Virus record (IMG/VR): IMGVR_UViG_3300047409_000248
Span: 10,180-74,179 of that record
DNA length: 64,000 bases
DNA from: a virus
Reading direction: 5' to 3' (one strand)
The translations under genes and the position numbers were made by a program. The notes under the pieces are model-generated. The model did no database searches, had not been told where the DNA came from, and saw only the letters and a program-made list of their open reading frames with translations. Shown one piece after another: positions 10,930-30,713 of this stretch; the first letter of the stretch is position 1, and every line of letters starts with the position of its first letter.

Positions 10930-11127
10930 ATGCGACTTCGCGAATGGATGGATAAGACAAATACGGATGTTCTGAAGTTCGCAGAATTAACCGGATCATC
11001 AGTGCATACTGTAAAGAAGTGGCTGAAGAACCGAGAAAAAGACGGTAGAACACCAAGACCAGCCATGCAGGCCAAGATAAGGGCCGTAACCAAAGGTGAT
11101 GTAATGCCCAATGATTGGGTGGCATAA
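10930..11127 (+). CDS. Cro/XRE-like HTH regulator
   Basis: MRLREWM...FAELTGSSVHTVKKW...RTPRP...I..VTKGDVMPNDW; GAGGA RBS; divergent from the leftward operon. Confidence 0.8.
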   Translation: MRLREWMDKTNTDVLKFAELTGSSVHTVKKWLKNREKDGRTPRPAMQAKIRAVTKGDVMPNDWVA

Positions 11128-14675: not shown

Positions 14676-14905
14676 TGAAATATTATACAGGACCGATCGA
14701 AGAAGTTCGCCCCGGAGATATATTAACCGCTGAGCGCCAGCTTGAATATCGTGAATATATGGCCAAGAAACATAATATGAAAAATATTAAACTGTGGGGA
14801 CCTAACGAGACCTACAAGGATAGCGGCGCTAGACCTTTCGCCGTTAATATCTCTCCTGCTAAGCCTCTTCCTAAACAACCAGAAGAACCTAACCCGTTTG
14901 AATGA
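14675..14905 (+). CDS. Hypothetical protein
   Basis: TAATG-coupled; ends PEEPNPFE. Confidence 0.55.
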   Translation: MKYYTGPIEEVRPGDILTAERQLEYREYMAKKHNMKNIKLWGPNETYKDSGARPFAVNISPAKPLPKQPEEPNPFE

Positions 14906-15161
14906 ATTCCATGGCGCTGGTGATTTCTTCTTCCGAGAAATCGCTAGGAGTTTCAGCCCGGCCATACCAAGGCCTGTCAATTGTCCAATCTGGAGCTTGA
15001 TACATCACTGTCCAGCCATTACCTAAATCCTCGCAATGCCGCATACTGCCTTCTGGCAGTATGGTATCCAAAGCGTACAATCTCTTTCCATCCTTTGAGA
15101 CTTTGTGTGCATATCTCTGGTTCATGGTAGAAATTCGATTGATGATCCATTCTTCAACCAT
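14889..15161 (-). CDS. Hypothetical protein with acidic C-terminal tag
   Basis: Ends DFSEEEITSAMEFIQTG. Confidence 0.7.
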   Translation of the reverse strand: MVEEWIINRISTMNQRYAHKVSKDGKRLYALDTILPEGSMRHCEDLGNGWTVMYQAPDWTIDRPWYGRAETPSDFSEEEITSAMEFIQTG

Positions 15162-15630
15162 TGATTATCTCCATGGCGCGTTCAATACCTTCTTCGGTAA
15201 AGCCATCATCAGTGATTACTACACCCCATGGAAATACATCATGCGCCGTTAATGCCTTCTCTGAGTTCTCAAATTCAAACATTGTTGGGGTTTCTAATCT
15301 AGTTGCAAACTGATATGGATGATGTCTGTTATTATGACCCGATATCTGTACCTGTGTGAGAACAATCATTCTCCCGCGCGGAGTCATGACTTCCTTATGA
15401 TCCCAATATTGGGTATTGCGAGGAATTTTCTCCCAATCCTCCGGGATATCCCAGATACGATTGGGGTCATTAATATCGCCATAGATGAACACTAGAACCC
15501 AGTGTTTTCGCCCATCCGGTCCCATCACCACATAGCTGCGCTCGATTACTGCGTGGTTTATCCTTTCCATGTTAGAAACAAATGCAGTTTCTTCTGGCGT
15601 GAGATGTATTGGATGTAGGATTGTGCTCAT
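15154..15630 (-). CDS. Hypothetical protein with acidic C-terminal tag
   Basis: Ends GFTEEGIERAMEIING. Confidence 0.7.
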   Translation of the reverse strand: MSTILHPIHLTPEETAFVSNMERINHAVIERSYVVMGPDGRKHWVLVFIYGDINDPNRIWDIPEDWEKIPRNTQYWDHKEVMTPRGRMIVLTQVQISGHNNRHHPYQFATRLETPTMFEFENSEKALTAHDVFPWGVVITDDGFTEEGIERAMEIING

Positions 15631-15694
15631 AACGGCCCCTGTAGTATCCTGCTGCCTAGATAAACCCAGATTGTGTCACTATCAAGGATGATCC

Positions 15695-16198
15695 ATGGGA
15701 GTGCTTCGTAACATAGACGATGAACGGTTCTGCCAACTGGTAGTCTCAGGCCGCGACCCCGCAGATGCCTATACCGACACTGGAGGGCTGTCCAAGAACC
15801 CTAGCTACGCCGCCGATCGCAAGATGCGAAAGCTGGTCATCCGGAAGCGGCTGGAGGAATTACTCGACGTAGGGGCTCGCAAGGCCATGCTGAGCCGGTC
15901 CCAGATACTCCAGAGGATGGTGGAAGATTGGGATTTGTCTCGAAAGCTAGGTCAAATGGCAGCCGCAGCAACAAATGCAAAATTAATAGGGATGGAGACT
16001 CATAAAATGTTCGTTGAACGCAAGGAGATAGGAGGTGCTGGGGATTTTGATCAAAAAACCGCCACAGAGTTGTTAGAGTTTATCAAACATGAGATTTCAG
16101 AGCTTGGCCTTGGCGCTGAAGAGATCAAACAACTTGGTATAAATATTGAACCCAATGTCACCATCTTGCCTCCATTGAAGAAGACTGGTACGGAATGA
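15695..16198 (+). CDS. terS: Terminase small subunit
   Basis: LRN...ERFCQLVVSG....DAY...G...A.R......IRKRLEEL HTH pattern; AAATNAKLIG...MFVERKEIG. Confidence 0.75.
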   Translation: MGVLRNIDDERFCQLVVSGRDPADAYTDTGGLSKNPSYAADRKMRKLVIRKRLEELLDVGARKAMLSRSQILQRMVEDWDLSRKLGQMAAAATNAKLIGMETHKMFVERKEIGGAGDFDQKTATELLEFIKHEISELGLGAEEIKQLGINIEPNVTILPPLKKTGTE

Positions 16199-16737
16199 AA
16201 AAATGCTCATGTTGCCAAATACTTAAACAAGAAGATGAATTTTGGAGAGTTCGTAAAGGCCAACCAAAACTACAGAATAAGTGCAAGGCCTGTGGCACAG
16301 CCATGACGCGAGAATGGCGCCGTAAAAATCCAGAACGCAGCGCCGAACTTAGCATGTGGGCCAAGAAAAACCCAGATAAAGTTCGATCCAAGCTTCTCCT
16401 GAAGCTTTACGGCCTAACTCCCGCTGATTGGGATCGAATGTTGGCTGACCAAGATGGCGGCTGCGCCATTTGCGGCGATAATGAGCCAGCCAGAGGGTTC
16501 CACGTAGATCATTGTCATAAGACTGGGCGCGTCCGTGGCTTGCTCTGCACCAACTGCAATCATGGTATTGGGAACTTTAGTGAGGACCCCAAGACGATCT
16601 TGGAAGCGGCCCGCTATGTCATGAGGGACCAGCTTATCAAGCTAGATGCGCCGGTTCCAATGGATGATAACCAAGCCGCAGAATTCCTGCGAGATATAGA
16701 AGAGGGAAGAGCCATTCCGGTTGTGAAGAGGAACTAG
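16195..16737 (+). CDS. Endonuclease VII-like HNH protein
   Basis: YGLT...ML..Q.G.CAICG...HVDHCHKTGRVRGLLCTNCNHGIG. Confidence 0.92.
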   Translation: MKKCSCCQILKQEDEFWRVRKGQPKLQNKCKACGTAMTREWRRKNPERSAELSMWAKKNPDKVRSKLLLKLYGLTPADWDRMLADQDGGCAICGDNEPARGFHVDHCHKTGRVRGLLCTNCNHGIGNFSEDPKTILEAARYVMRDQLIKLDAPVPMDDNQAAEFLRDIEEGRAIPVVKRN

Positions 16738-17009
16738 CTTTCTATAAATTCTATTGCCTTGGTGATATCTTCCTCGTTGAATTCTTCCTGAGATAATTCA
16801 GCAATTAAATCCTCAGGAAATGTACCATTCCATCTATTCCATTCAGGAGACGCATTATCGGGGTATCGATGCGTGGAATACCATTTATTTATTCCTTCTA
16901 TGGTTACTAAGAACCAACCACGTTTGGTTTTGTACCAAGTCTGTTCTTGGTGGTTCCACGAAGATAAATCCTCTTCTCCCGTCAAATCCCATACGCCTTC
17001 ATAGTTCAT
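16734..17009 (-). CDS. Hypothetical protein with acidic C-terminal tag
   Basis: Ends EFNEEDITKAIEFIES; ATGA-coupled. Confidence 0.7.
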   Translation of the reverse strand: MNYEGVWDLTGEEDLSSWNHQEQTWYKTKRGWFLVTIEGINKWYSTHRYPDNASPEWNRWNGTFPEDLIAELSQEEFNEEDITKAIEFIES

Positions 17010-17374
17010 GATCTTTCCTCCTCTATTTCATCCATGATGATCTGAGCCAACTCGATATCTTCCTCATCGAATTCTGGCGTCATGAAAGATGACGGCGCAA
17101 TGATGTGCGGCGCTATGTAACTATCCCAGAACGTTGGGGGTATTCCCTCCACTTTTGGTTCTCCAACAGCACCACCATCATAGAGTTCAGTGGCCATGTA
17201 TTCGTTAATAGCATTTGGGACATTATGCCTAAAGATGAGACCTTTTTTAGTTAGGTGTATGGAAATATACTCAGATGCGCAGCAAAATATTCTTGCATAT
17301 TCTTCCACGCTTATATCACTCAGCAAATTCCATACCCTCTTCTCATCATCGAATATTGGATGATAGATGCTCAT
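17006..17374 (-). CDS. Hypothetical protein with acidic C-terminal tag
   Basis: AAGAGGGAAA RBS; ends EFDEEDIELAQIIMDEIEEERS. Confidence 0.75.
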   Translation of the reverse strand: MSIYHPIFDDEKRVWNLLSDISVEEYARIFCCASEYISIHLTKKGLIFRHNVPNAINEYMATELYDGGAVGEPKVEGIPPTFWDSYIAPHIIAPSSFMTPEFDEEDIELAQIIMDEIEEERS

Positions 17375-17410
17375 TGTGTTTCCCTCTTGTTGTCCTATAT
17401 GGCCCTTACG

Positions 17411-17887
17411 ATGCCTACAGGAATCAGAACAGCACCTCCCATTTATGGGAGGAAGATATGCGCCAAGTGTGGCGAAGAAAAGCCTATCGAGGATTTCTAT
17501 AGAGAAAGAAATCCTTGCCGGGCTTGCCGCTATAAAGCCTCCAATGCATGGAGATTGAATAATCTAGAAAAAGTAGCGGCTCAAACGCGGGCATGGCACA
17601 AGCGTAATCCGGAACGTAGCAGCGATATGTATCGTCGCCGAAAATATAAAAATTTAGAGTGGGGTGATTTCGACCGGATGCTCAAGGAGCAAGATAGCAA
17701 GTGTGCCATTTGCGGTATAACCGACCCAATGGGGCGTGGAGGTTTCCACATAGATCATTGCCATAAAACAGAAAAGATACGTGCGATACTTTGTCATAAC
17801 TGCAACTTGGGAATAGGTAATCTCCAGCACGACCCGCGTATTTTGCAGGCCGCGCTGGAGTATTTGTTGAAGCATAGCGACGAATGA
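17411..17887 (+). CDS. Endonuclease VII-like HNH protein (start 17399 or 17411)
   Basis: CAKC...CRAC; QDSKCAICG...HIDHCHKTEKIRAILCHNCNLGIG. Confidence 0.9.
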   Translation: MPTGIRTAPPIYGRKICAKCGEEKPIEDFYRERNPCRACRYKASNAWRLNNLEKVAAQTRAWHKRNPERSSDMYRRRKYKNLEWGDFDRMLKEQDSKCAICGITDPMGRGGFHIDHCHKTEKIRAILCHNCNLGIGNLQHDPRILQAALEYLLKHSDE

Positions 17888-17889
17888 TT

Positions 17890-19101
17890 TTACTTGTAAC
17901 TTACTGTCCTGCCATAGGGAGCTTTGGCGCCAGAGTTGGCCCAGTCTACCCAAACTACGGGAAACTCAGGCTGTGGACCAAAACTGGAGGTCATCATGTC
18001 CGTGAGGAAGATGCAGCCGATGACATCGGACATCTCACCAACGGTCTTCATAGCGGTATCGAAGTTAGTCCCACCACCACCACCAGCATTCCAGCCCTTC
18101 AGGTCTTCTGAGGACTTGGCTTCCAGTGTGTTCTGGATGCGGGTATCCACAGAGATAAGCGTGACATGGTTGATCAGGTTCTGATCCAGAAGGCTTGCAG
18201 CCTCCTCGCACATTTCTTGGATCATCTGCTGGCTGACTGAGCCAGAGACATCCAAGCACATGACCAGCTTGAACACCTTGTCATTTCCGTTCCCGGGAAA
18301 ATATTCATCATTCCCAAGGCGGCGCCGGTTGGGCCGTGTCCAAACGCGAGTGGTGTTGGACTTGGCATCGCGAGACATATCCCGGATCAGGTCTTTCCAA
18401 TCGATTTTCTCTTTCGGGAAAAGGTCTTGGATCAGACGCTGAAGATTACCGGGCATGGTACCGGGCGGGGATTTCTCGATAGCTCCCGCGACGGAATTCT
18501 TCCATTGGCGCTCGCCCTGTTCCTGTTCTTGCTCTGATGTCTCGTCAGAGAACATGGAGCCGGGCTTTTCTTGTTCTCCCTCTTGGCCCTCGCCTTCGCC
18601 TTCCCCGTCGCCATCTCCATCCTCAGGCTGGCCTTGACCCTGACCTTTGCCCTTCTGTTTCTGCTTCTGCTTTTCTTGTTTTTCTTCCTGCTGTTGCAGG
18701 AGTTCATAAACAGCCTCAGGTGATAGTTTGCTGAACTTATCATCCCTCAAAGCATCTTCAGGGAGCTTGAAATAGTCTTCCACGACCTTATTGGCCGGGA
18801 AAGAACAGGACTGGTTCCAGCGCTCCTCCTGACGATAGCGACGGCGGGAAACGTGCAACATCGCGCAATGCAGCACCGTCTTGAGCAGGATACCTTCCAG
18901 AAACTTGTCGGCTTCGCCATCTTCCACGAAATCAGGATTGTAAAAGATATCGATGCCGTTGGTCCAGACGGTTTGATGTTTCTTGCTCTCAATGATGTTT
19001 GCACCAAACAGGATTGATGCAAAGAACGGATTGCGCTTAGCCACGCGTTCCCGCGCTATAAGCATTCGTCGCATTGCAGTTGGTTTCAGAATGTTGAACA
19101 T
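17890..19101 (-). CDS. VWA-domain/metallopeptidase-like protein (DUF2201-type), partner of the MoxR AAA
   Basis: NPFF...T.WTNG..I.YNP; acidic/Gly linker; MIDAS DVSGS, GGGGT, FLTD; AGAGGGAAA RBS supports a start at 19101. Confidence 0.9.
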   Translation of the reverse strand: MFNILKPTAMRRMLIARERVAKRNPFFASILFGANIIESKKHQTVWTNGIDIFYNPDFVEDGEADKFLEGILLKTVLHCAMLHVSRRRYRQEERWNQSCSFPANKVVEDYFKLPEDALRDDKFSKLSPEAVYELLQQQEEKQEKQKQKQKGKGQGQGQPEDGDGDGEGEGEGQEGEQEKPGSMFSDETSEQEQEQGERQWKNSVAGAIEKSPPGTMPGNLQRLIQDLFPKEKIDWKDLIRDMSRDAKSNTTRVWTRPNRRRLGNDEYFPGNGNDKVFKLVMCLDVSGSVSQQMIQEMCEEAASLLDQNLINHVTLISVDTRIQNTLEAKSSEDLKGWNAGGGGGTNFDTAMKTVGEMSDVIGCIFLTDMMTSSFGPQPEFPVVWVDWANSGAKAPYGRTVSYK

Positions 19102-19169
19102 TGGTTTCCCTCTTTGAGCGAGATTGCTCAATACTGGAGTGGATTTCACCACTCCAGAGTTTAGCAATC

Positions 19170-20210
19170 TTATTTGCCGCTGCCTTCCAGCAACAACTCC
19201 TTGAGTTGCGGGATATTCGCAAGAGACTTATCCCGGCTCATGGCGTCATGAACGCACATGGAAGCGACATCCGGCAACAGTCTTGCCAGATATTTGGCGA
19301 ACTGCGCCGCGTTCTTGGCCGTCATGTTGCGAGCGATGGTGCCGCCCATCAGATACTGAAAGTGAGCATCTGCGGGAAGCTTGGCCTTGACCGGATCAGC
19401 TAAGATATCCGCGATCTTCGGCAGTCCTGCTGCCAAGCGATCAAGGAAACTCTCGAACTGACGGCTAAAACCCTCGCCCAAGATAGCCAGCGCCGCGTTG
19501 CCCAGAACCGTTTTCAGGGTTTTCTGGTCCAGTCCCAGCGCATCACTATCCTTAAGAACCTTATTGAAGTTCTCAAGACTGCGCGGCGTTGGAAATGCAG
19601 CATGATTGACATCCACCTTATGGACCAACTCAGGACGAAGCTGGAGAAACGCGATCAGGCGCTTGTCCCAGCCCCATTCCTTGGTCTTTTCGATGAAGCC
19701 CGGCTCATCTACTTCCACAAGGATATGCGCCATGCGATTTTCAAGAGGCTTGAGCATCTTGTTATCGCCACCACCATCCTCGCGGGTATTGGAGCCCAGA
19801 ATGATCCGGTTCTGCTTGGGAAGCGGATAGCCGCCGCAAGACCGATCCAGAACCAACTGGTAAGTCATCTGCTGAAGCTGGACGCTGGCATGACCGAATT
19901 CGTCATAGAACATGACGTGCATATTGTCGTCTTCTTCCGGGACGAACGCGGGCCGCGTCCAGTATGTGGCCATCTTCTCGCGGTCAATCAGCGGCATGCC
20001 CGTGCCATCCACAATATCCTTTGTGGAAAGCCTAGTGTCATGCAAACGAGACTGGGGACCAAAATCACTCCTGACCTTGGTCATGATCTCGGTATTGATG
20101 ACCGCAGACTTGCCGACGCCCGTTGGTCCCTTGATCATTACCGGAACGTTGGCGTGGATCAGGGGATACGCGACTTCGGCAAGCTTGGTAATTTTGCACT
20201 TTAACATCAA
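19170..20210 (-). CDS. MoxR-like AAA+ ATPase
   Basis: GPTGVGKS; MFYDEF; YQLVLDR; LENR; FPTPRS. Confidence 0.9.
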   Translation of the reverse strand: MMLKCKITKLAEVAYPLIHANVPVMIKGPTGVGKSAVINTEIMTKVRSDFGPQSRLHDTRLSTKDIVDGTGMPLIDREKMATYWTRPAFVPEEDDNMHVMFYDEFGHASVQLQQMTYQLVLDRSCGGYPLPKQNRIILGSNTREDGGGDNKMLKPLENRMAHILVEVDEPGFIEKTKEWGWDKRLIAFLQLRPELVHKVDVNHAAFPTPRSLENFNKVLKDSDALGLDQKTLKTVLGNAALAILGEGFSRQFESFLDRLAAGLPKIADILADPVKAKLPADAHFQYLMGGTIARNMTAKNAAQFAKYLARLLPDVASMCVHDAMSRDKSLANIPQLKELLLEGSGK

Positions 20211-20271
20211 GGTTTTCCCTCTTGTAGAGCAGGATTGCTCAATAATGGGCTGGGATTAGCCAGCCCATAGT

Positions 20272-20451
20272 TTAGCAAACTGGTATCTTGAGACTTTTAG
20301 AGAAGCCATCGAGCTTTACTATTAGCTCATTGGCTTCTTTATGATAGCCAGCGCAGAAAGACCACCAATTGATCTCTGCGATGGCTTCCGCAATTACTCG
20401 GCGAGTAATCTCTATATCGTCTTGTTGCGGATCGCCTTGACCATAAGCCAT
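20272..20451 (-). CDS. Small hypothetical protein (59 aa, not in ORF track)
   Basis: MAYGQGDPQQDD...; GAGGAGG RBS; its stop lies in the base of an RNA element. Confidence 0.55.
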   Translation of the reverse strand: MAYGQGDPQQDDIEITRRVIAEAIAEINWWSFCAGYHKEANELIVKLDGFSKSLKIPVC

Positions 20452-20619
20452 TTAGTGGCCCTCCTCATTTGGAGATTTGTGTAAACGCGTGACTGAAGCA
20501 ATCAACGCGATTGCCATGCCAAGCGCATACAGGATGAACAAGATTTCCATATTCCCTCTATCTCGCACTTTCTACAAAGCACGTTTATTGGGCGATTTTA
20601 TGGCGCCCAATAGACTTAC

Positions 20620-21540
20620 TCAGAGATCGTATTCTGCTGCTTCTGCAACCATCTCAGACACTTCAAGATCAAGAGTGTCCAATTCCACGACTTTGGCTAG
20701 GATATCTTTGCCGCGAATAATAGCGTCTTTACGGGAATAGGAACTATCCCGCAATTCACTGGCGGTAAGATGTCCCAATCTTGCAATCGACCGCGCTAGC
20801 AGTTTGATGTCTTCACTCTCAGTAATATTCATATCCCTGAGAAGTTCTGATATCTCCCTGCAATTGTTCACAAGACTATCGCGGATCAGCTTGCCATCGG
20901 CTGTTGATTTATAGCTCTCCAACCTATCGACAAATATCCCCACGATTTCCTTGGCGCGGTTTACCATGGTCATGGCGGCCTCTTTCAGCCTCGTTTCAAT
21001 CTCCAGCGACATCTGGCTGGTCGCTTGCGCTACAGCCTCTTTCGCTATGTCAGCCACGAAATGGCCGGTTGAAGGCATTGGCCAATACGTGAGCTTGAAC
21101 CGGAACATATCCTTTGCCTTGTTGGGACTGGGATATTCAGTGCGATCAAACAAATCGCCTAGTTCTCGCTCGCTATCGGCTATCAGTGCAGGATAAACTT
21201 GCAAATACTCATCCCATGCCAAGCGTAATTCGTGCTCAGCATCTGAGATTTTCCTTGTGAATTCATCATGCACCGCGACCGGAAGCAATCTGGTTTTGTC
21301 ATCGCCCCATGGTAGAGAGTATTTGTAAACAATTTCGCGTACCCTCTGCGATGCAGCAACAACGGCTTTGACCTTGGCATGCCTACGGTCGATAAGGAAC
21401 TTGCTGGCTTTTGCGCGCCGGTCATGAAGATTGAACTTTCTTTCCACATATCCGGTTGCTGTCTTGTCGCGCCGTTCACCCAGCAATCCGCCATTTATAA
21501 TGGTCACAGAAACAAGCATTGCAGATTTGGCTAGGTCCAT
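20620..21540 (-). CDS. DUF3150-like protein accompanying AAA/VWA genes
   Basis: LAKSAMLVSVTI...K.L...Y.Y.LPW.D...RLLP...LGDLFDRTEYPS...F. Confidence 0.8.
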   Translation of the reverse strand: MDLAKSAMLVSVTIINGGLLGERRDKTATGYVERKFNLHDRRAKASKFLIDRRHAKVKAVVAASQRVREIVYKYSLPWGDDKTRLLPVAVHDEFTRKISDAEHELRLAWDEYLQVYPALIADSERELGDLFDRTEYPSPNKAKDMFRFKLTYWPMPSTGHFVADIAKEAVAQATSQMSLEIETRLKEAAMTMVNRAKEIVGIFVDRLESYKSTADGKLIRDSLVNNCREISELLRDMNITESEDIKLLARSIARLGHLTASELRDSSYSRKDAIIRGKDILAKVVELDTLDLEVSEMVAEAAEYDL

Positions 21541-21810
21541 TTGAATGTTTCCCTCTTATAGAACGCTCGTTTGGCGCTCATCACTGAGGCTCTAAAGCCT
21601 CAGGACATGAACGTCATTTCTCAACCATGAGAAAGGTGGCTTTCCCATCCGATATTTGGATTATCCCGAGTTTATCGGGATGATCGAATACTTCAGCGCT
21701 ATCTGGGTTGATCCAGGTTCGCTCAAATGCCGTCCAGCTAGCAGCTAGCAATCCTCCGATGAAAGCTAATTCGGCCTCTTTTGTCTCGAAAGACAGTTGA
21801 TAGGCTATCA

Positions 21811-22209
21811 TCAGTGCAGTGTCTTGCCGTCTTTGCGCGGAGATTTCTGCACACCACAATCGCAAATATGATCGTGGCATTGGTCCGCTACCATTCCGAA
21901 ATTATCCTCGCTGATATGGCCCATTTGCGCGGCCATGATCATGAAAGGTCTGATTGCTTCAATGGGCAATCCGATGGCTTTGCGAATTCGCTTTGCCTTG
22001 AAGATGGCATACTTGCCAACCTTAGTCGGAGCTTCGTCCATCTGCTTGGTTTCAGCGAAAAACGGCATGATAAGAAGATACCGCCAGAAGGTTTCCGCGT
22101 TGCTTTCCCATTGCGGGAAAAACTCAGCCAGCTTGCGCTTGCTGAAAGTCACACCATTGACCCTGAAGGCCGCCGATGTCTCGTTACATTCGATGCACAT
22201 GACAGGCAT
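21811..22209 (-). CDS. Hypothetical protein with Cys/His motifs
   Basis: AAGAGGGAG RBS; CIEC...CHDHICDC. Confidence 0.65.
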   Translation of the reverse strand: MPVMCIECNETSAAFRVNGVTFSKRKLAEFFPQWESNAETFWRYLLIMPFFAETKQMDEAPTKVGKYAIFKAKRIRKAIGLPIEAIRPFMIMAAQMGHISEDNFGMVADQCHDHICDCGVQKSPRKDGKTLH

Positions 22210-22485
22210 GGTTAAATCTCCCTCTTGTAGAGCATAATGCTCTATGCTGCGCTACGTGATTTGTACATAGCGCAGTGAAGAACATTAGACATATTCGTGG
22301 AATTGCGTTCCGTATTGCTCCGCGACCTGTTCTTTGGTCAGCGGTGGATTGCGCTTTTCGTGGATCATCTGCTTATAATTGAGCGCATAGTAAGTCACCC
22401 AATTAGCTGCATGTGGATATCCTACCATTTGGAACGGCGTCCTTGGCCGCTTCAGAAGGCGCGATATGGGCGTAGGTTGGCCATT

Positions 22486-22761
22486 TTAATGGCCCTCCTC
22501 AAACGTATCCACAAGCTCAAAACCGGCCTCATCAAGCTCCATCGTCATATATGTTATGGGCTGGTTGATGGTTTCGGCATAAGCTTTGACGGTTTGATCT
22601 GGCGCGCAGAATATTTCATCTGCCGCTGTTTCCAGCAGTTGTTGATTTTTAATGAACCAACCAGCGCCAGCGATTTCAGCCTCATCGCGGTTTTTGGCTT
22701 CCACCTCAATCTCAATTCCGATTGCTGCGGAGGCTTCAAAATGCACTTTAAATTTTGGCAT
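22486..22761 (-). CDS. Hypothetical phage protein
   Basis: MPKFKV...IEVEAKNRDEAEI.A; AAGAGGGAAAA RBS. Confidence 0.7.
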   Translation of the reverse strand: MPKFKVHFEASAAIGIEIEVEAKNRDEAEIAGAGWFIKNQQLLETAADEIFCAPDQTVKAYAETINQPITYMTMELDEAGFELVDTFEEGH

Positions 22762-22999
22762 GGTTTTCCCTCTTATTGAGCGTAATGCTCATCACTGAAG
22801 CCCGTAAGCTTCAGGACATGAGCACTAGATAAAACAGGCTATGATAAAGCCTATACTGCCAAAGCCTATTGTAAGGGTCAGGCAGTCAAAGATTGCAGTG
22901 CGGAATTCCGCTTCTTCCTGCGTCATGATATGAGCCATATCATTCCTGCGGCCCAGAGCGCCATATAGACGCCCCAGAACGCAACCAGATATTTGTCAA

Positions 23000-23194
23000 T
23001 CATGAGCTAACCCATGATGCGCCGCAGGCCAGATAGAATTGCTCCGCGTGAAAGTTGGCATTGGTATCGCCAAGCCGGTCAGCGAAAGCCTTTGCGACTT
23101 TCTGCTTTTCAGCTTGTTCGATGTCCAAGCCATCAATCGTTGCGGCAATCAACTCGAAATGCCGTCGCTGCATTGATGTTTGATGTCTTGCCAT
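23000..23194 (-). CDS. Small conserved phage early protein
   Basis: MQRRHFELIA..I...VA.AFAD.L...N.NF....F..ACG; AAGAGGGAAAA RBS. Confidence 0.75.
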   Translation of the reverse strand: MARHQTSMQRRHFELIAATIDGLDIEQAEKQKVAKAFADRLGDTNANFHAEQFYLACGASWVSS

Positions 23195-23261
23195 GGTGTT
23201 TTCCCTCTTGAAGCTTAAGCGCTTCGTGCTGCACCTATTGCTAGGTGCAGTGTCGAAAAGC

Positions 23262-23510
23262 TTATTCTGCGGCTTGCAATTCACGCGTGCTGCGCTTGAT
23301 GGCAGCCCGAACCGAATTCAACGCTCCGAAAACCTTGGATTTAATTTCCTTGTTTCCGATTGCGTTGGCATGCGGCCAAGCGAGTTCAAGCGCAGTCTTT
23401 GCAGCGCCGAATTCACCGTTGCGGATAAGACGCTCTGCGGTAGAAAGATGCAGGGTCAACGTGACTTTGTGACTGTCGCGCTCTGCATCGTTCAATTGCC
23501 TTTTTGCCAT
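23262..23510 (-). CDS. Helical hypothetical protein
   Basis: AAGAGGGAAA RBS; lies between two RNA elements. Confidence 0.7.
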   Translation of the reverse strand: MAKRQLNDAERDSHKVTLTLHLSTAERLIRNGEFGAAKTALELAWPHANAIGNKEIKSKVFGALNSVRAAIKRSTRELQAAE

Positions 23511-23571
23511 GGTATTTCCCTCTTAGAGCGGAATGCTCTATGACGCTCTCCGTAGAGAGCGCTTAGAACAC

Positions 23572-23751
23572 TCAATCAGCGTCGTCAGTCTTGAGCGGGG
23601 AAGCGTAGTAATATTGTTCGTTCTTTGCGTACAGGAACGCTCCGAGCTTGACGACTTTAACGCCGCCGCGCTTAAGCGCCACTTCCATCGTATCGCCTTC
23701 AGCCATACGAATAGGAGATTTAACCGCCCAAACCTTTGCAAATTGTGCCAT
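23572..23751 (-). CDS. Small hypothetical protein (59 aa, not in ORF track)
   Basis: MAQFAKVWAVKSPIRMAEGDTMEVALKRGG...; AGAGGGAAAA RBS; bounded by two RNA elements. Confidence 0.7.
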   Translation of the reverse strand: MAQFAKVWAVKSPIRMAEGDTMEVALKRGGVKVVKLGAFLYAKNEQYYYASPLKTDDAD

Positions 23752-23823
23752 GTGTTTTCCCTCTCTTGAAGCAAAATGCTTCGTGCTGGAGAGTGGTTAA
23801 GCTCTCCAGTGTCGAAACACTCG

Positions 23824-24333
23824 CTAAAGACAAGCGCCAGCTTTGATCCGGAAGCGAGCGGAACTAAATCCGCCAGATACAGGGTCAGTGATTACCAGTT
23901 GACCGTCCTGGCGAAGCATCCAATTTCCGCTGTGCAAATCGCCGCTAAGATTGTTACGGCGAAGTTCAGCGACATATTCAACGATATCCGTTGCTTCGCA
24001 TTGGCCGCGATTAAAGATATTATTGAAGACACGCGCTTGTGCTGTTCTAGCACCATGTTCGTATTTGAGTTCACTCATGGTGCAGATAAGGCGTTCCATG
24101 ATAGCCACGTAAAACTCATCATGGAATTTCAGGCTGTAGACCTTGGGAGCGAATTTCCCAGCGTGGCCGTTATTCGTGGCCCATTGGATATAGGAAGGCC
24201 ATTCGTCCAGTTCCCCAACCTTAATCACCTTATCGAAGGCGTTAGGAATGGAGTAAACCTTGGAATAAAGGCCGCTCCCTATCTGGAGACATCCAAGCTC
24301 TGCCAGTCTTGCCTGATATTCGCGTTGGTTCAT
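23824..24333 (-). CDS. Minimal Ser/Thr protein kinase-like protein
   Basis: IGSGLYSKVY (Gly loop), VIK, MERL, DLHSGN (catalytic loop), VITDP. Confidence 0.85.
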   Translation of the reverse strand: MNQREYQARLAELGCLQIGSGLYSKVYSIPNAFDKVIKVGELDEWPSYIQWATNNGHAGKFAPKVYSLKFHDEFYVAIMERLICTMSELKYEHGARTAQARVFNNIFNRGQCEATDIVEYVAELRRNNLSGDLHSGNWMLRQDGQLVITDPVSGGFSSARFRIKAGACL

Positions 24334-24421
24334 GGTGGTTTCCCTCTCTATGGCAGTTGAAAATTGCCTAACCGGCTAGACTAAACGCCTAGCCGAAATA
24401 ATGTGCTGAGGTATTCTAATA

Positions 24422-24637
24422 CTAAGCTCCGATACGCCATATGTCAGAAGTGACATTATGGTGGTCGATTGCGCCGCATGATTTAAGCCCGGCTTTCACC
24501 GGGATACGAAAATCGTTTGGCCTTGTTTTCCATGTCTGAGTTTTGCCATTGCGGCGGCATTTCCAATAGTTCCCGTTGCCCATACGGGCATAAAGCGAAC
24601 CATTGTCCAATGCCGTTTCAAGTGCTTCCTTTGTCAT
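24422..24637 (-). CDS. Small conserved phage protein, first gene of the putative early operon
   Basis: W.CRRNGKTQTWKTRP.DFRIPVK.GL motif; AAGAGGGA RBS. Confidence 0.75.
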   Translation of the reverse strand: MTKEALETALDNGSLYARMGNGNYWKCRRNGKTQTWKTRPNDFRIPVKAGLKSCGAIDHHNVTSDIWRIGA

Positions 24638-25354
24638 GGTATGTAATCCCTCTTTCGGCTAAATTGCCTAATAGCTAAAGAGGCTTAGCAGGGTAGGAAG
24701 TCGGAAAATGAATTCCGGCTAACCACACTGCCAAGCCTCTAAAGCCAAAAAGCCAGCTTTCTAGGGCTAGCTGGTAGTAGAGAGAAAAGGGTATGGAACA
24801 GCTTGTTACGGCTGTTCCCCATGTTGCCAAGTGCAATGCTTGGTATCATCCCCCCATGCCAACCTGCTCAATGAGACTTACGGCGCGATCCGGGGATAGG
24901 TAGCTTATGACGACCAGACGATGCTGGCGCTACTGTCCCGCCTTGCTAGGCAATGGAAAGAGGAGTTTTAGGCGTTCTAGCCCGATTTTTATCCCCGCCA
25001 TGGTTACTCTCGCTCCGCTACACGGGAACGCTATGCCCCTATCGCGTAAGCTACCCTAGCCATAGTCCAGAAAGGGAAATTGCTCGCAAGTATTGCCTAA
25101 TGAGGGCTGGATCGCTGGAGGTTGTCTGTCCCTCCTTGGACGGCATATGGCGCTTGCTACGCCTGCCGGGACTAGGGCCTAATCGACCTAGTGGCTGAAT
25201 GCGCTCTATCAAATCTCCATCTCGTTAACCTGAGATAAAGATACGCCTTTGTAGCAATCCAGTTAGTGGGTTAGACGCATGGCTGGTATGCGCTGAGATC
25301 ATAACGCTTGCTAAGTGTAGCTAATCAATGCATTATTGCATGGCAGGTATGCAC

Positions 25355-25666
25355 ATGACGCAGCAATGCTCTAATTGCCAATCAATCCACGATGCATCTG
25401 GGCGCTACTGTAAGCCTTGCCGAGCGGCTTATATGCGAAATTATCGCCGCATCAATCCTGCCAAGCCATCGCACGAGCAACGCTCTAAAGCCATCTGTAG
25501 GGCTACCGCTAACGTCTACAAACGTAGAGGCAAGATAACCCTAGAACCATGTGAGCATTGCCTAGCTGATAAAGTCGAAATGCATCATGACGACTATACC
25601 AAGCCCCTAGTCGTCAGGTTCCTATGTGTCCCATGCCATAGGGCGCTGCATTATCCCGGACCATGA
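25355..25666 (+). CDS. HNH-like Zn-ribbon protein
   Basis: CSNC...CKPC; CEHC...MHHDDYTKPLVVRFLCVPCH; paralogue of 5407..5874. Confidence 0.75.
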   Translation: MTQQCSNCQSIHDASGRYCKPCRAAYMRNYRRINPAKPSHEQRSKAICRATANVYKRRGKITLEPCEHCLADKVEMHHDDYTKPLVVRFLCVPCHRALHYPGP

Positions 25667-25699
25667 ATAACGGGCGAAAGGGTAAGGCAATCGACCTCC

Positions 25700-26000
25700 C
25701 TCGCGTTGTTCCACGTGTAACCCACATGCACATGCGAGTCATTCGCATATAGCCACATGCGAACCACTAGCAACAAGCCTCATGCCAATGAGATATGCAC
25801 ATAGCGCATAGACCCATGCGTGCTAAGCATATGATATTCCACAAGTTCCCACCCCCTCCCCCATGCATAGCAGCTAGCTCATCCAGATAAGAACAGTTCG
25901 CATCAAGCCTCATGCCAAGCACCTATGCACTACAGCATTGCACCTATGCGCCCATAGGAGGGCTAGTCGATAATGATAGTCATTCGCAAAAGGGTACCTT
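25700..26000. repeat. Non-coding region with short direct repeats
   Basis: CAAGCCTCATGCCAA at 25774 and 25904; AGTCATTCGCA at 25737 and 25978; many CATG/GCAT/CATA motifs. Confidence 0.6.
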
Positions 26001-26158
26001 GGGGTCGGCCAACCCGCCTATAGGATCGCCCCGCCCAGTCGGAGCCTTCTCGGCCATTCGACCTTTATGTAAAATTTTATAGAAGACCCTTCTTGTATCG
26101 TAAGCGGTGTAAGCATATCCTGTAAGGATTGTAAGTACTGCATGTAAGGGAGCGTAAT

Positions 26159-26521
26159 ATGGATACTGAGACCATTAGAATGGCTATAGCTAGGGTGAGG
26201 CGTGGCTCTACTAACCGTGATGTTTTGGACGTTTGTGATTTTGCGGAAAAATGTTTGGGCTCGAAACCCAAGTTGTCCGAGCTTGAGCGTAAGGAGAAGG
26301 AGCGGGAGTATATGAAGGGGTATCGAGCTAGGCTGAGAATGAAGAGGCTGGCCAAGGAGGGGGATCGTATTGAGCAACGATCCTTGGTCAGGGCGGTGAA
26401 GGATGGGAAGCTGGAGACGATAGACCGGATACGGCGGATGGTGGCGGACCAGCAGGCGCTGGCATCGGTTCCCCGGTTCCCCAAGGATGAGGACGATCCC
26501 AATCCATTTGAGGAGGGTTAG
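26159..26521 (+). CDS. Hypothetical basic protein
   Basis: GGGAG RBS; REYMKGYRAR; ends PNPFEEG. Confidence 0.65.
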   Translation: MDTETIRMAIARVRRGSTNRDVLDVCDFAEKCLGSKPKLSELERKEKEREYMKGYRARLRMKRLAKEGDRIEQRSLVRAVKDGKLETIDRIRRMVADQQALASVPRFPKDEDDPNPFEEG

Positions 26522-26712
26522 ATGGCGACGGTAAAGAAGGGGATACTGAGCAGGGCTCAGGAATGGTGGAAGCATTTGAGGGGGACCAAGCGTCCTTTCT
26601 GGAAGAGGGAGAGGAAGGCGGCGAAGCGGGATATTTCCAAAAGACTGTCTGAATAAGAACACAATCTGTACCTAGAGTGTGATCGGGTTAGGCCACATTA
26701 GAGAGGAGGTGT

Positions 26713-27003
26713 GTGATGAAGATCACAACGACGTTTAATGATCTGGTTCAGGCCAATGCCGAGTGTGCGGGTATTATTGTGAAGCAGATGGAAGAGATTG
26801 AGAGTCTGAGGGATGCTCTTCGGATGATCGTGGAGTGGAGTAAGGCATACCCGTTGAGTGTATTCCCGGAACCTGACTTGATAAAGGCCAGCGCTCTACT
26901 AGAGGCTGGCGGGCAGACGTTGGATGCCATTAGTGCCCATGCGATGCGGCATGTGGTGGAGGGTGTGGGGGAGATCGCCAAGGGAGCCCTGAAGGAGGTT
27001 TGA
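26713..27003 (+). CDS. Hypothetical phage protein
   Basis: GAGGAGG RBS; WSKAYPLSVFPEPD...TLDAISA.AMRHV motif. Confidence 0.7.
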   Translation: MMKITTTFNDLVQANAECAGIIVKQMEEIESLRDALRMIVEWSKAYPLSVFPEPDLIKASALLEAGGQTLDAISAHAMRHVVEGVGEIAKGALKEV

Positions 27004-27179
27004 GATGATCCATGATGTGGATGACCAGATGGAGATGGAGCGGGCTTTGCGGGAGTGGCAGGCTGCGCGGAGGGCGATCTTTGTTTTTCCGATGACGACG
27101 CCTGCCAGCCCTGAACAACTCAGGCTATGGGAGCGGCTGGGGAATGCGGAAGATGCTCTGATGAAGATTGAGGTCTGAG

Positions 27180-27470
27180 ATGGCAAACCAGCACATCCGA
27201 TCAGAAACCTTCCTGCGCTGGGGCGATATACTGGATCGGGCTTATCGGTTGGATAACCACGATGAGGTCTTGGCCGAATTTAACCACCGCATTAGTGCCA
27301 TTGATCTCCAAGGAGGTCATCCACGGGATGCCAGTGACGAGCGATACGCATTGTGTACCCGTGTGATGCAGGAGGTGATGGGAGAGAAGGAAGTTGAGGT
27401 AACGCTGGATGCCCAAGCAGACGAGTATGAGGAGTGCATGCGTGCACAGGAACTGATGGAAACTCTCTGA
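27180..27470 (+). CDS. Hypothetical protein with acidic C-terminal tag
   Basis: Ends QADEYEECMRAQELMETL. Confidence 0.7.
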   Translation: MANQHIRSETFLRWGDILDRAYRLDNHDEVLAEFNHRISAIDLQGGHPRDASDERYALCTRVMQEVMGEKEVEVTLDAQADEYEECMRAQELMETL

Positions 27471-27820
27471 TGGCAAAGATGGCAAATCTGAATACATTTA
27501 CAGGCATCATTGAGCATATCAGGCCATACATTCGGCATGAAGCGGAAGCCACTGGCGTCTTTATGAATACCCAGATTAATTATTGCGATGACACGTTATT
27601 TCTGAGTGCTGTCTACGAGAAAAATGAGAACCACAGCATCCTCCTTACCAGAGAGGAGGTAGAGCAACGGCGCTGGATGCCTCTGGTCGAGGAAAGAGTG
27701 CGCGCTGCCATCCAAGCGGTCAAGCCTGACATCTCTCTTTCCTGCCAAGCCGACGAATACGAGGAGACCATGAAAGCAGAAGAGATCATAGAAGAGTTAA
27801 CGCCGGTCGGGGCCAAATAA
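27470..27820 (+). CDS. Hypothetical protein with acidic C-terminal tag
   Basis: TGATG-coupled; ends QADEYEETMKAEEIIEELTPVGAK. Confidence 0.7.
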   Translation: MAKMANLNTFTGIIEHIRPYIRHEAEATGVFMNTQINYCDDTLFLSAVYEKNENHSILLTREEVEQRRWMPLVEERVRAAIQAVKPDISLSCQADEYEETMKAEEIIEELTPVGAK

Positions 27821-28032
27821 TGAGCCGCATATCCAAAAAGAAAGAACGGTCTTGGCGACTTCGCAAGAAGCGTTGGAAACTCCAGCCCAAGGATTACGAC
27901 AGGCGAGACGATACGATGGCTATCGTGGCTGCCGATCTGGCTGATTGGCAATGGAAGGCTCTCCCTGAAGAGAGCAAGGAGATTTACCGCGCCAGAGCGG
28001 AAAAGGCCTTTTCTGTCTTCTCCTCAAAATAG
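27820..28032 (+). CDS. Small basic protein (HMG-box-like C-terminus)
   Basis: WKALPEESKEIYRARAEK. Confidence 0.55.
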   Translation: MSRISKKKERSWRLRKKRWKLQPKDYDRRDDTMAIVAADLADWQWKALPEESKEIYRARAEKAFSVFSSK

Positions 28033-28084
28033 ACTTAATTGAGTGTGATCTGATATTCACAAACATAAAGAGGGAAAACACTAC

Positions 28085-28636
28085 ATGGCTAACGAACCCA
28101 AGATCGGTCAGTTGCTGACCAGCCATCTCGCTGACCGAGATGCAATCCATATCGCGGTGGCGCCCGTGATCGCAGCGGAAGAACTGCGTCCGGGACAGCA
28201 CGTTGGCTTTGTCAAAGACGGAGACACTACTGTTGTTGGTCCGAACGCCAACTCTCTTATTGGCATCATCGATCCATATCTGGATGAGATCGTTCATCCC
28301 GGTGCAGCCTGCTGGCTGTTCCTGTATCCGCAGACGATTACCTCGCTGCGCCATAACTGGACGCATCCAGCCTTTGGCGAAAAGAAGCCCGTCATTTCAA
28401 GTTCTGAAAGGTGGCTTAGAGACTTCGCCGATGAAGTTGATGCTGACTATGATGAAATGATGCATGTTGCGTCTACTCATTGTACCGGCAATAAAGACCG
28501 TTGGCCTGACTACTTAATTGATGGCGGCAAATGGGAAGGCACGAGCACACCAGAAGAATTCTGGACGCATTTCACTGCCGTAACCGGCAAGACGCCAACC
28601 GATGGCCCGACTGGCATATTTTCCTGTGGCTGCTAA
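28085..28636 (+). CDS. Conserved hypothetical phage protein
   Basis: RDAIHIAVAPV...GIIDPYL...WLFLYPQTITSLRHNWTHPAF; AGAGGGAAAA RBS. Confidence 0.8.
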   Translation: MANEPKIGQLLTSHLADRDAIHIAVAPVIAAEELRPGQHVGFVKDGDTTVVGPNANSLIGIIDPYLDEIVHPGAACWLFLYPQTITSLRHNWTHPAFGEKKPVISSSERWLRDFADEVDADYDEMMHVASTHCTGNKDRWPDYLIDGGKWEGTSTPEEFWTHFTAVTGKTPTDGPTGIFSCGC

Positions 28637-28663
28637 GCCATTGGCACCAAAGGATCATCTTCT

Positions 28664-28885
28664 ATTAATTATAGCAAACCGTTCCAGACCAAGGAAGGTT
28701 GGGATGAATTCAATCGGCGCGTGGCATTGCTGCATAACTTTGCCACCCCGGGCCAAGCCTCCGGTATTATGCGTGAAGTTCAGATATGGGAAAACAACTT
28801 CACGGGCTCTTACCTGCAAGAACAGGAATACAACGAGATCATGAAGGCCAATGAGCTTTACATGAAACTGTGCGAGAAAGATTGA
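28664..28885 (+). CDS. Unlisted ORF with acidic C-terminal tag (non-canonical start or frameshift)
   Basis: Open frame 28637-28885 ending QEQEYNEIMKANELYMKLCEKD; ATT at 28664 follows AAGGA; first GTG at 28721. Confidence 0.5.
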   Translation: MNYSKPFQTKEGWDEFNRRVALLHNFATPGQASGIMREVQIWENNFTGSYLQEQEYNEIMKANELYMKLCEKD

Positions 28886-28895
28886 GGGAAAGACA

Positions 28896-29159
28896 ATGGA
28901 CGAGTTCGACAGACTAGGTTTCAACCAGTTGCCTCCATCCGGCAAGACAGCCCTTGATCAGATGAAGGCATTGATCGATGACAGCGCAGGGCCAGCCGAT
29001 GTTGGCGTAGCTGTTTCCTTGGGGCTGGGGTATCTTCTGGCTGTCTCCAATGAGCCGGAAGATATCCTCAAGGTAACGATCATGACCGCTATGAAGGTCA
29101 AGCAGATCATGGAGGCCGGGATAGAAAAGGATCGCTCCGATGCCCAATGGTCCAACTGA
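28896..29159 (+). CDS. Hypothetical protein
   Basis: GAGGGAAA RBS. Confidence 0.6.
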   Translation: MDEFDRLGFNQLPPSGKTALDQMKALIDDSAGPADVGVAVSLGLGYLLAVSNEPEDILKVTIMTAMKVKQIMEAGIEKDRSDAQWSN

Positions 29160-29406
29160 CCGTCATGAACAATACGACAGCACTCAGGATTTACTGAAAC
29201 GTATTAAGGCGCAGAGTTCTTACCAACAAAAGCAGGATCGCATCCTGCAAGATATCGCTCATGAGAAGCGTCTCAGAGTTTTAGAGGCCGAAGCTATAGC
29301 TGTAGTGGACAGGAAGCTATCCGAAGTCGAGAGGGAATACTTGGAGACCATCAAGGCCCAAGAGATCATGGATCAGATCGATGAAAACCGCAAAAGAGAT
29401 GCTTGA
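29140..29406 (+). CDS. Coiled-coil protein with acidic C-terminal tag
   Basis: Ends REYLETIKAQEIMDQIDENRKRDA. Confidence 0.65.
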   Translation: MPNGPTDRHEQYDSTQDLLKRIKAQSSYQQKQDRILQDIAHEKRLRVLEAEAIAVVDRKLSEVEREYLETIKAQEIMDQIDENRKRDA

Positions 29407-29713
29407 TAGCGTTGCCGGGTTTGCCCTGAAGATGGAGTGGATTATAGGAACCTCTCTGGTGATTTTCTGGTTCACCATCGCGGTTGTCGGGTTCGCTTTT
29501 GTATTTGAATATTTCCATAGCAGGTCCCTTCAGCGCCATCGGGCGATACTGGAGGATGAGTACGAGCGAGCGCTTATCTATCATAAAGCCCGGGAGAAAG
29601 AAAAAGAACTGGAGCAACGCCAAGCCATTCTGGAAGAGACTGACAGGGAATACATGGACGCAATACGAGCGCAGGAAATTATAGAAGAGTTGGAAAAGGG
29701 AAACATCAAATGA
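29381..29713 (+). CDS. Single-TM protein with acidic C-terminal tag
   Basis: TM helix WIIGTSLVIFWFTIAVVGFAFVF; ends REYMDAIRAQEIIEELEKGNIK. Confidence 0.7.
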   Translation: MKTAKEMLDSVAGFALKMEWIIGTSLVIFWFTIAVVGFAFVFEYFHSRSLQRHRAILEDEYERALIYHKAREKEKELEQRQAILEETDREYMDAIRAQEIIEELEKGNIK

Positions 29714-30222
29714 GCTATGGCGAGTTCTTTCTCTATATCACTGCTGGCGCCTTCTGGGGCATCGTCGGTTTTACAAATGGCCGCAACCTGTATCGGCGCT
29801 GGAAAGCCCCGCGCCAAATGTCCAAGCTGGATGATATGATCTCCAGACTTAAGCAGGAAGCCCAAGAGGCTATGGAGGCGATGAAGATAGAGATCAAGCA
29901 GACCCCTTCCACTCCAGAGACCCACGTCCTGTCATGGCGCTACAAGGGCGAGCTACAGCAGGTCAAGATCGTTATCGACCCGGCTCTGGATACCGCCATT
30001 GAAGGCAGCAGGGAAGAGTTTGAGCAATTGGTTAAAGAGGGTGATGCCGGGAAGCTTCAGGACCTTCTGGATGGTCTGGCCAGCAACGATGCCAAGGATA
30101 GGATTTCCGCTCAGGACATCTTCGTGTTTTCCAGAAAGGCTGTTGAGCAAATGAAGATGGCCGATATGTCCCCGGACGATATCGTCACCAAAATACTGAA
30201 AGCCTCTGGGAGGATGGATTAA
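29710..30222 (+). CDS. N-terminally membrane-anchored hypothetical protein
   Basis: ATGA-coupled; hydrophobic N-terminus. Confidence 0.65.
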   Translation: MSYGEFFLYITAGAFWGIVGFTNGRNLYRRWKAPRQMSKLDDMISRLKQEAQEAMEAMKIEIKQTPSTPETHVLSWRYKGELQQVKIVIDPALDTAIEGSREEFEQLVKEGDAGKLQDLLDGLASNDAKDRISAQDIFVFSRKAVEQMKMADMSPDDIVTKILKASGRMD

Positions 30223-30713
30223 TGGGCTGGTTTACCTTTGCCGATGAGGCAGTAGCCAAGCTGTTCCAGCAGCATAAGCAGGAATGCATTGACCGAAAAC
30301 CCAAAACAGATACTCTCCAGCCAGATCAACCGGCTGGAGATACTTCCATGGCAACAGTTACGATGACGACCAATCTTACTCCCTACGCCGCAAATACCGG
30401 AGTCGTAGCGCTCCCCAGCAATAGCGGTCCTTATTATACTTATACGCCTGCTGGCCAGCTTGGCGCTGGCCAATATGTTGGCGCCGCGAATGCTGTCTAC
30501 GCCTACGGTAATTCTCCACAATACGTGACCGCTGCTTATCCGGCCGGTGGTCTTCATGGCATGGCGTGGCCTATCGCAACTCTTGCCAACAACGGACAAT
30601 GGTTTGAAGCGGCTCAATTGGGTGCCCAGCCGATCCAACCAGTAGATCGTTCCGAATTCTCCGAAGAGGAAATCTCTCAGGCAGAAAAACTGATGGAGGA
30701 ACTGAGTGCCTAG
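30222..30713 (+). CDS. Low-complexity Tyr/Ala/Gly protein with acidic C-terminal tag
   Basis: Ends EFSEEEISQAEKLMEELSA. Confidence 0.7.
   Translation: MGWFTFADEAVAKLFQQHKQECIDRKPKTDTLQPDQPAGDTSMATVTMTTNLTPYAANTGVVALPSNSGPYYTYTPAGQLGAGQYVGAANAVYAYGNSPQYVTAAYPAGGLHGMAWPIATLANNGQWFEAAQLGAQPIQPVDRSEFSEEEISQAEKLMEELSA

Follow-up and report, generated by a model that had tools for sequence, protein, structure and literature searches.

The locus examined here raises the question of why ten small proteins of one uncultured phage should close with the same kind of acidic peptide, and what, if anything, recognises these endings. The window analysed comprises 64,000 nucleotides (bases 10180-74179) of a single 74,179-bp phage contig, IMGVR_UViG_3300047409_000248, for which a soil metagenome run is the best source match; unless stated otherwise, coordinates are positions within this window. 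Ten small open reading frames (ORFs) of the window end with one of two motifs, F-x-E-E-x-I-x-x-A-x-E-h-h (type A, where h is hydrophobic; five ORFs) or E-Y-x-E-x-M-x-A-x-E-I-M (type B; five ORFs), hereafter referred to as tags. The window phage (G000) was compared with four related IMG/VR genomes (G001-G004), whose AAA ATPases share 63-82% identity with its own, and a 15-kb fragment (L022) belongs to the same clade. Tagged genes make up about one-tenth of the genes in these phages, and nearly all of them are without known function. Our analyses show that the tag is a real and specific feature under selection at the level of the peptide, and tentatively suggest that it serves as a docking helix.

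The strict type-A pattern (aromatic-x-acid-acid-x-[ILMV]-x-x-A-x-x-h-h), run on the six-frame translation of the contig, matched five ORF ends, 2-8 residues before the stop, and one internal chance position at 7278-7316; the strict type-B pattern matched five ORF ends, 3-11 residues before the stop, and nothing else in the contig. All ten C-termini listed by the original prediction are present at the genes to which it assigned them. Hidden Markov models (HMMs) seeded with the five plus five window tails, with one iteration, were searched against 6,885 ORFs of the five related genomes and returned 48 tagged ORFs (10, 12, 5, 9, and 12 per genome), in 47 of which the motif ends no more than 15 residues from the stop, whereas reversed and shuffled versions of the same ORFs gave no match at E<=1. 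The models likewise gave no match in 291 kb of unrelated SLOG-carrying phage contigs or in the nearest GenBank phage, MW202675. The tag is therefore enriched over a shuffled control and recurs in four relatives. De novo clustering of C-terminal tails found the tag cluster in G001, G003, and G004 with the threshold applied but missed it in G000, where the largest cluster was noise; taken together with ortholog comparison, it points to at least five further weak copies of the tag.

The tag is confined to one clade of soil phages. Searches of each tail profile against 5.8 billion proteins gave matches confined to metagenomic proteins of the clade, and three scans of IMG/VR with stringent back-translated patterns returned the same four contigs and the 15-kb fragment L022, and nothing else. 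Two stringent patterns run on 185,579 species genomes gave scattered internal chance matches, with no prophage copy and no host protein carrying the tag. In the literature searched, no description was found of a shared tag on phage early proteins.

Across the tagged proteins, type A follows the consensus [DE]-F-[ST]-x-[DE]-E-I-x-x-A-x-E-[IFL]-[IM] and type B the consensus E-Y-x-[ED]-x-[MIL]-x-A-x-E-[IL]-M-[ED]-x-L, with Tyr in 31 of 31 type-B tails and with the Ala and the E-I-M of type B near invariant across unrelated bodies. The tag is preceded, 5-7 residues upstream, by a hydrophobic or Pro-Met position, Pro accounts for 7.9% of the 15 residues before the tag as compared with 3.8% in the bodies, and the mean net charge of the tag is -4.1; the 0-19 residues that trail the motif are variable, and the final residues differ. 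The two types have an A-x-E-h-h end in common, with a few cross-matches at E<1, but hhalign did not join them, so that the single motif originally proposed for all ten tails is reduced to this common end and types A and B are best handled as two classes of similar style rather than as one proven motif. Type-A position 4 also shows a lineage dialect across non-orthologous proteins: of the 11 tags from G000-G002, 10 have E there, and all 7 from G003-G004 have L or I. At the nucleotide level, the codons of aligned tags hold about 1.1, 1.4, and 0.3 bits of information at positions 1, 2, and 3, respectively, pairwise identity drops from 0.69 at codon positions 1+2 to 0.33 at position 3, and the amino acid replacements within the tag are conservative. 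Because codon positions 1 and 2 are conserved while position 3 is near random, selection acts on the peptide.

The bodies to which the tags are attached differ, as had been claimed. Without their tails, the 48 proteins form 42 BLAST clusters, and hhalign comparisons of seven ortholog families gave probabilities of at most 14% for the bodies alone but up to 93%, over about 25 columns, when the tails were included. The tail is better conserved than the body in five of five ortholog families (identities of 0.97 and 0.60 in the family of 30222-30713, and of 0.94 and 0.71, 0.95 and 0.60, 0.65 and 0.42, and 0.68 and 0.63 in the others), and an N-terminal transmembrane (TM) segment is found in 6 of the 48 proteins. 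Pfam and PHROGs assigned no family to the ten tagged proteins of the window; among all 48, the sole confident domain was SLOG/YspA (PF10686, 2e-13). This domain provides a natural comparison between tagged and untagged forms. The SLOG/YspA protein of the window phage (34352-34696, minus strand), encoded inside a sugar operon, is untagged and ends with the domain at about residue 130, its ortholog in L022 likewise stops at the domain end without a tag, and the same holds for nearly all of the best 150 of 14,733 library homologs (E<=0.001). On the other hand, the G004 protein P0026, the 41%-identical P0057, and about 12 soil-metagenome loci combine SLOG with an extension and a type-B tag. Since the SLOG domain occurs with the tag in certain lineages and without it in others, the tag is portable. 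Another protein, P0004, is a chimera that joins the body of the 158-residue protein at 15154 to the exact tail of the 90-residue protein at 14889. The AlphaFold model of P0026 (predicted local distance difference test score, pLDDT, 92) indicates that the extension adds one strand, followed by a linker where the score dips to 66 and a helix at residues 150-166 with a score of about 80; the model of the 158-residue type-A protein (pLDDT 47) was unusable, and a search of the ESM Atlas with a tail was uninformative, as a single helix matches anything. The tag thus outlasts the bodies and can be added to a pre-existing domain. From the original proposal of a modular docking signal that recruits varied cargo to one hub, the modular signal on varied cargo stands, by virtue of the higher conservation of the tails, the selection on the peptide, the Pro-enriched linker, and the SLOG proteins with or without a tag; the single hub is what we infer from these features.

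In our preferred explanation, which we advance tentatively and at somewhat less than an even chance, the shared ending would be a portable docking helix, or address tag, through which all tagged proteins are recognised by one common reader. Such a tag would span about 15-22 residues, running from the hydrophobic or Pro-Met position through an acidic-aromatic start into a short acidic amphipathic helix, and would be joined through a linker to many small, rapidly evolving non-structural proteins that are unrelated to one another. With one common reader, the phage could manage a shifting repertoire of accessory proteins collectively. A common binding surface is the simplest explanation because the tag stays identical on unrelated bodies although its synonymous sites are saturated, shifts in concert between lineages, and can be grafted.

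The best single candidate for this reader would be a pair encoded by the phage itself, a probable MoxR-type AAA+ ATPase and a vWA partner, an assignment that we nonetheless regard as doubtful. The two genes abut at 19167/19170. In the ATPase, Pfam AAA_5 aligned over 1-139 of its 139 positions at an E value of 0.13, below the cut-off, and AAA_7 at 9e-4; a homolog in phage nACB1 bears the depositor annotation MoxR-like. The metal ion-dependent adhesion site (MIDAS) motif of the vWA protein (DxSGS, GGGGT, TD) is intact in five of five genomes, and in the same five tag-bearing genomes the Glu of the HExxH motif is lost (KTVLH, HSVLH, HTVLH, ECVMH, EVIMH); HExxH is retained in four N4-like phages and in the Vibrio jumbo phage 2.275.O. 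Judging from this motif, the protein at 17890-19167 may be a pseudo-peptidase in this clade. In five of five genomes, the next genes on the strand of the pair are tagged ones, between one and seven in number; as the IMG/VR scans added no clade genome beyond the four contigs and L022, the rule that the tag implies the pair rests on five genomes. In the published model of MoxR pairs, the vWA domain uses its MIDAS site to capture a client peptide, and the ATPase acts thereafter (PMC7159879; for NorQ-NorD, PMC9976466 and PMC13036017). By extension, an acidic residue of the tag would be bound at the MIDAS site of the vWA protein, leaving the ATPase to remodel, assemble, or release the client. A fuller version, to which we give slightly less credence still, would have the AAA+/pseudo-peptidase-vWA pair read the tags by capturing the acidic helix at the MIDAS, perhaps together with the non-catalytic peptidase groove, with the ATPase folding, assembling, delivering, or releasing a rapidly changing set of small host-takeover proteins.

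Several observations weigh against the pair as reader or against a free docking helix. The profile matches that place the ATPase in the MoxR class are weak, and most type-B genes of the window phage sit in another operon, divergent from the pair. Four N4-like phages have a homologous AAA/vWA pair and no shared tail was found in them, so the pair can do without tags. Modelled without alignment depth, the P0026 tail helix could lie against the body, and there are small helical proteins, the P0008 family among them, in which the tag extends a body helix. Of the hubs named in the original prediction, a phage AAA+ ATPase gains circumstantial support (the vWA partner, the synteny, and the intact MIDAS). 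In solved structures, no sequence relative was found for the ATPase, the vWA protein, or a 306-residue protein encoded at 20620-21540 on the minus strand. The gene for this last protein lies directly upstream of the pair in five of five genomes, and a homolog occurs at the edge of the soil locus L190; no family was found for it, and it may be a third component of the AAA/vWA module. Elsewhere, in Vibrio phage 2.275.O (MG592671; L163 23802-24975), three neighbouring proteins encoded immediately downstream of the AAA/vWA pair share the ending [ED][DQ]YP[ED]V.ADL[VI]L, which is similar in style to the tag; these three may be plain paralogs.

The docking reading has to be weighed against explanations that need no protein reader. 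Conservation might be a by-product of nucleotide signals at gene ends, such as the Shine-Dalgarno sequence or start of a coupled next gene, or an RNA element. A same-strand ORF does start -56 to +31 nucleotides from the stop after 40 of the 48 tagged genes, many downstream genes start inside or just past the tag, GGAGG-like strings occur in M-E-E/G codons, and type-B position 13 is mildly enriched in GAG (13 of 20, against a background of 47%). But third codon positions carry little information as compared with the first two, replacements are conservative at the amino acid level, Glu codons at the other tag positions are predominantly GAA, and the next start falls -41 to +34 nucleotides from the motif end in no fixed register. 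Given the GAA-rich Glu codons and the variable next start, translational coupling explains at most two or three positions (type-B 12-14), and as an account of the whole tag the nucleotide explanation is hardly credible. It is also conceivable, though rather improbable, that there is no common reader and that the tagged proteins are an old, fast-diverging paralogous family, or share a helix borrowed by recombination, whose last helix serves the protein's own fold or self-association. The small genes lie in tandem co-directional arrays, the neighbours 16734-17009 and 17006-17374 reach 14% by hhalign on bodies and 87% over 83 columns with tails, and the confidence of the predicted tail helix in P0026 is in line with such a role. 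This is difficult to reconcile with a tag on a full SLOG domain, when thousands of homologs of that domain fold with no tag, or with the presence of the tag on TM, low-complexity, and beta-rich bodies; the invariant Tyr of type B, the near-invariant Ala and E-I-M, and the saturated synonymous sites exceed the needs of a generic zipper, and tags that each carry a net charge of about -4 are less likely to associate with one another.

Other readings keep a reader but place it elsewhere. The tag may dock on a host hub (a protease or its adaptor, RNA polymerase or a sigma factor, or a replication or segregation hub), the bodies bringing different targets or activities; taken by itself this is unlikely, yet a protease adaptor, RNA polymerase, or another such hub is roughly as probable as the AAA/vWA reader. 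By analogy, a body, a linker, and a terminal docking peptide make up the architecture of known adaptors, SspB with ClpX being one; moreover, the genes lie in non-structural arrays typical of host takeover, the lineage dialect could track different hosts, and the phage depends on host transcription and encodes a GcrA-like regulator. Against a host hub, the two stringent patterns found no tag-bearing or tag-like host protein in the species genomes, and the residues after the motif vary, unlike those of ssrA-type degrons. Two specific candidates were tried and rejected. Mimicry of PopZ was considered because its conserved (S/T)MEEILASIRRII N-terminal helix seemed similar; an HMM of 75 distinct alphaproteobacterial sequences had no tagged C-terminus among its best matches, and controls scored about the same, so that the PopZ helix matches the tags no better than controls. 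An ssrA-like degron was dismissed since the proteins end in -TG, -NG, -ES, -RS, -SA, -TL, -AK, -KD, -DA, and -IK, with no stop-anchored residue enrichment. Finally, the tag could direct its carriers into the procapsid, through capsid, scaffold, or portal, for delivery to the next cell. A capsid offers many identical sites for many clients, and terminal targeting peptides are familiar from encapsulin cargo; they have also been reported on T4 internal proteins (PMC3012670). However, some tagged proteins carry N-terminal TM segments, the tagged genes sit alongside recombination and regulatory genes, in arrays well away from the structural module, and no structural or scaffold-like protein with a similar end was found. 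The procapsid or portal, put forward originally as a possible hub, is thus disfavoured, and we consider packaging very improbable. The positions of the tag carriers are collected in Table 1.

Table 1. Tagged genes of the window and the neighbouring AAA+/vWA pair
Feature	Coordinates	Strand	Tag, its coordinates, and support
Type-A gene, 90 residues	14889..15161	-	FSEEEITSAMEFI at 14901-14939, 3 residues before stop; HMM E 6e-6; ortholog in G001
Type-A gene, 158 residues	15154..15630	-	FTEEGIERAMEII at 15163-15201; strict pattern and HMM
Type-A gene, 91 residues	16734..17009	-	FNEEDITKAIEFI at 16743-16781; orthologs in G001 and G002
Type-A gene, 122 residues	17006..17374	-	FDEEDIELAQIIM at 17033-17071; first same-strand gene after vWA gene
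Peptidase-like (DUF2201_N) and vWA protein, candidate tag reader	17890..19167	-	PF13203 3e-31, PF09967 2.4e-21, VWA_2 7.9e-5
AAA+ ATPase, probably MoxR-like, candidate tag reader	19170..20210	-	PHROG 1297 'ATPase' at 4e-64
Type-B gene, 100 residues	27168..27470	+	YEECMRAQELM at 27426-27458; alternative start ATG 27180; HMM E 2e-7
Type-B gene	27434..27820	+	YEETMKAEEII at 27758-27790; strict pattern and HMM
Type-B gene, 54 residues (orthologs 90-104 residues)	28721..28885	+	YNEIMKANELY at 28829-28861
Type-B gene, 88 residues, charged body (a coiled coil according to the original prediction)	29140..29406	+	YLETIKAQEIM at 29338-29370
Type-B gene, 110 residues	29381..29713	+	YMDAIRAQEII at 29651-29683; ortholog P0031
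Type-A gene, 163 residues	30222..30713	+	FSEEEISQAEKLM at 30657-30695; syntenic in every clade member

Within the minus-strand array, homologs P0002-P0004 of the 158-residue protein retain the tail, and the G001 ortholog of the 122-residue protein shares 36% body identity with a nearly identical tail. Two Endonuclease VII/HNH genes on the opposite strand (16195-16737 and 17255-17887, both plus) interrupt this type-A array, the former overlapping a tagged gene tail to tail by 4 nucleotides. Because no counterpart of either was found in G001-G003, they are probably mobile insertions. In the plus-strand group, the protein at 27434-27820 would have 128 residues from a GTG start or, more likely, 116 from ATG 27470, P0005 being of 116 residues. 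The protein at 29381-29713 has an N-terminal TM segment followed by basic residues, as read from its sequence, and its tag should therefore be cytoplasmic. The next gene (29710-30222, plus strand), whose start and stop codons overlap the type-B TM gene upstream and the type-A low-complexity gene downstream, encodes a 170-residue protein with an N-terminal TM segment that is kept in G001-G003, in L022, and in several soil loci. The type-A protein that follows (30222-30713) has only 1 charged residue but 12 aromatic ones (9 Tyr) at residues 41-140, on a background of A, G, T, P, N, and Q that amounts to prion-like low complexity; the bodies of its orthologs are hypervariable in length, with tails 97% identical, and from this composition it could be a condensate scaffold. 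In G003, one ORF (38698-39243; L003 15104-15736) has an internal type-A-like tag and a second, C-terminal tag and is probably a fusion of two tagged genes.

Elsewhere in the window, the phage encodes a large terminase (40146-41750), a large protein (41776-44430) taken by position and size as a candidate portal, a capsid gene conserved at 83-91%, and a nonulosonic-acid sugar operon. A homolog of the GcrA-family cell-cycle regulators (11115-11645, plus strand; Pfam PF07750, 5.6e-23) is present in five of five genomes, and the closest terminases are those of phages of Roseobacter, Paracoccus, Rhizobium, and Erythrobacter; together, the GcrA-family core gene and these terminases point to an alphaproteobacterial host as probable. 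A scan for promoters and terminators gave counts not above those of shuffled sequence, and no RNA dataset was listed among those matching the phage sequence.

A common tag would offer one experimental handle on the whole tagged set, since a single bait peptide could suffice to identify the machinery acting on it. Should the reader prove to be the MoxR/vWA pair, this would be the first concrete role for a pair that is common in phages and has so far been guessed to aid virion assembly, and it would represent a new mode of organising phage accessory proteins; the present clade would then belong to a widespread phage chaperone-client or adaptor-library system that has yet to be described. As a short, portable, and specific element, the tag could also serve as a protein-recruitment tool in alphaproteobacteria.

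Among known systems, the closest likeness is to the MoxR AAA+/vWA pairs (NorQ-NorD, CbbQ-CbbO, RavA-ViaA, and those of jumbo phages of group 2.2), with which the phage locus shares an adjacent AAA+ ATPase and a peptidase-like vWA protein with an intact MIDAS. The MoxR/metallopeptidase-vWA pair of the group 2.2 jumbo phages has been proposed to act in virion assembly with proteolysis (PMC7824862), whereas here the peptidase motif is without its Glu, and the MoxR/vWA pairs described so far come without a library of at least ten unrelated clients under one tag. The T4 capsid targeting sequence, which is N-terminal, cut off by the prohead protease, and found on internal proteins packaged into the head (PMC3012670), is likewise a short terminal peptide shared by unrelated phage proteins, and is a sorting signal. 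Unlike it, the present tag is C-terminal (47 of 48), sits partly on membrane proteins, and is encoded in non-structural arrays. Acidic C-terminal tails of T7 gp2.5 and gp4 dock on the T7 DNA polymerase, and the C-terminal tip of the single-stranded DNA-binding protein (SSB) is comparable; they resemble the tag in being acidic, aromatic-bearing C-terminal peptides on different proteins, and theirs are read by one partner. The T7 and SSB tails are unstructured, require a terminal aromatic residue and a free carboxylate, and occur on two or three replication proteins, whereas the tag is a helix of 15-22 residues followed by 0-19 variable ones, occurs on at least ten proteins, and does not close on the residues that those tails require. 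Microcompartment encapsulation peptides, which are amphipathic helices after a poorly conserved linker, and encapsulin cargo-loading peptides are short, terminal, and portable between cargo proteins; the form of the former recalls that of the tag, a helix after a Pro-enriched linker. The phage differs in having no gene for a microcompartment or encapsulin shell; its capsid is the only HK97-fold shell, for which packaging is disfavoured. SspB carries a C-terminal ClpX-binding peptide, which is basic and belongs to one adaptor. The likeness to the tagged proteins lies in the order of a binding body, a flexible linker, and a short C-terminal docking peptide; the phage tag, on the other hand, is acidic, unrelated in sequence, and carried by a whole library of proteins.

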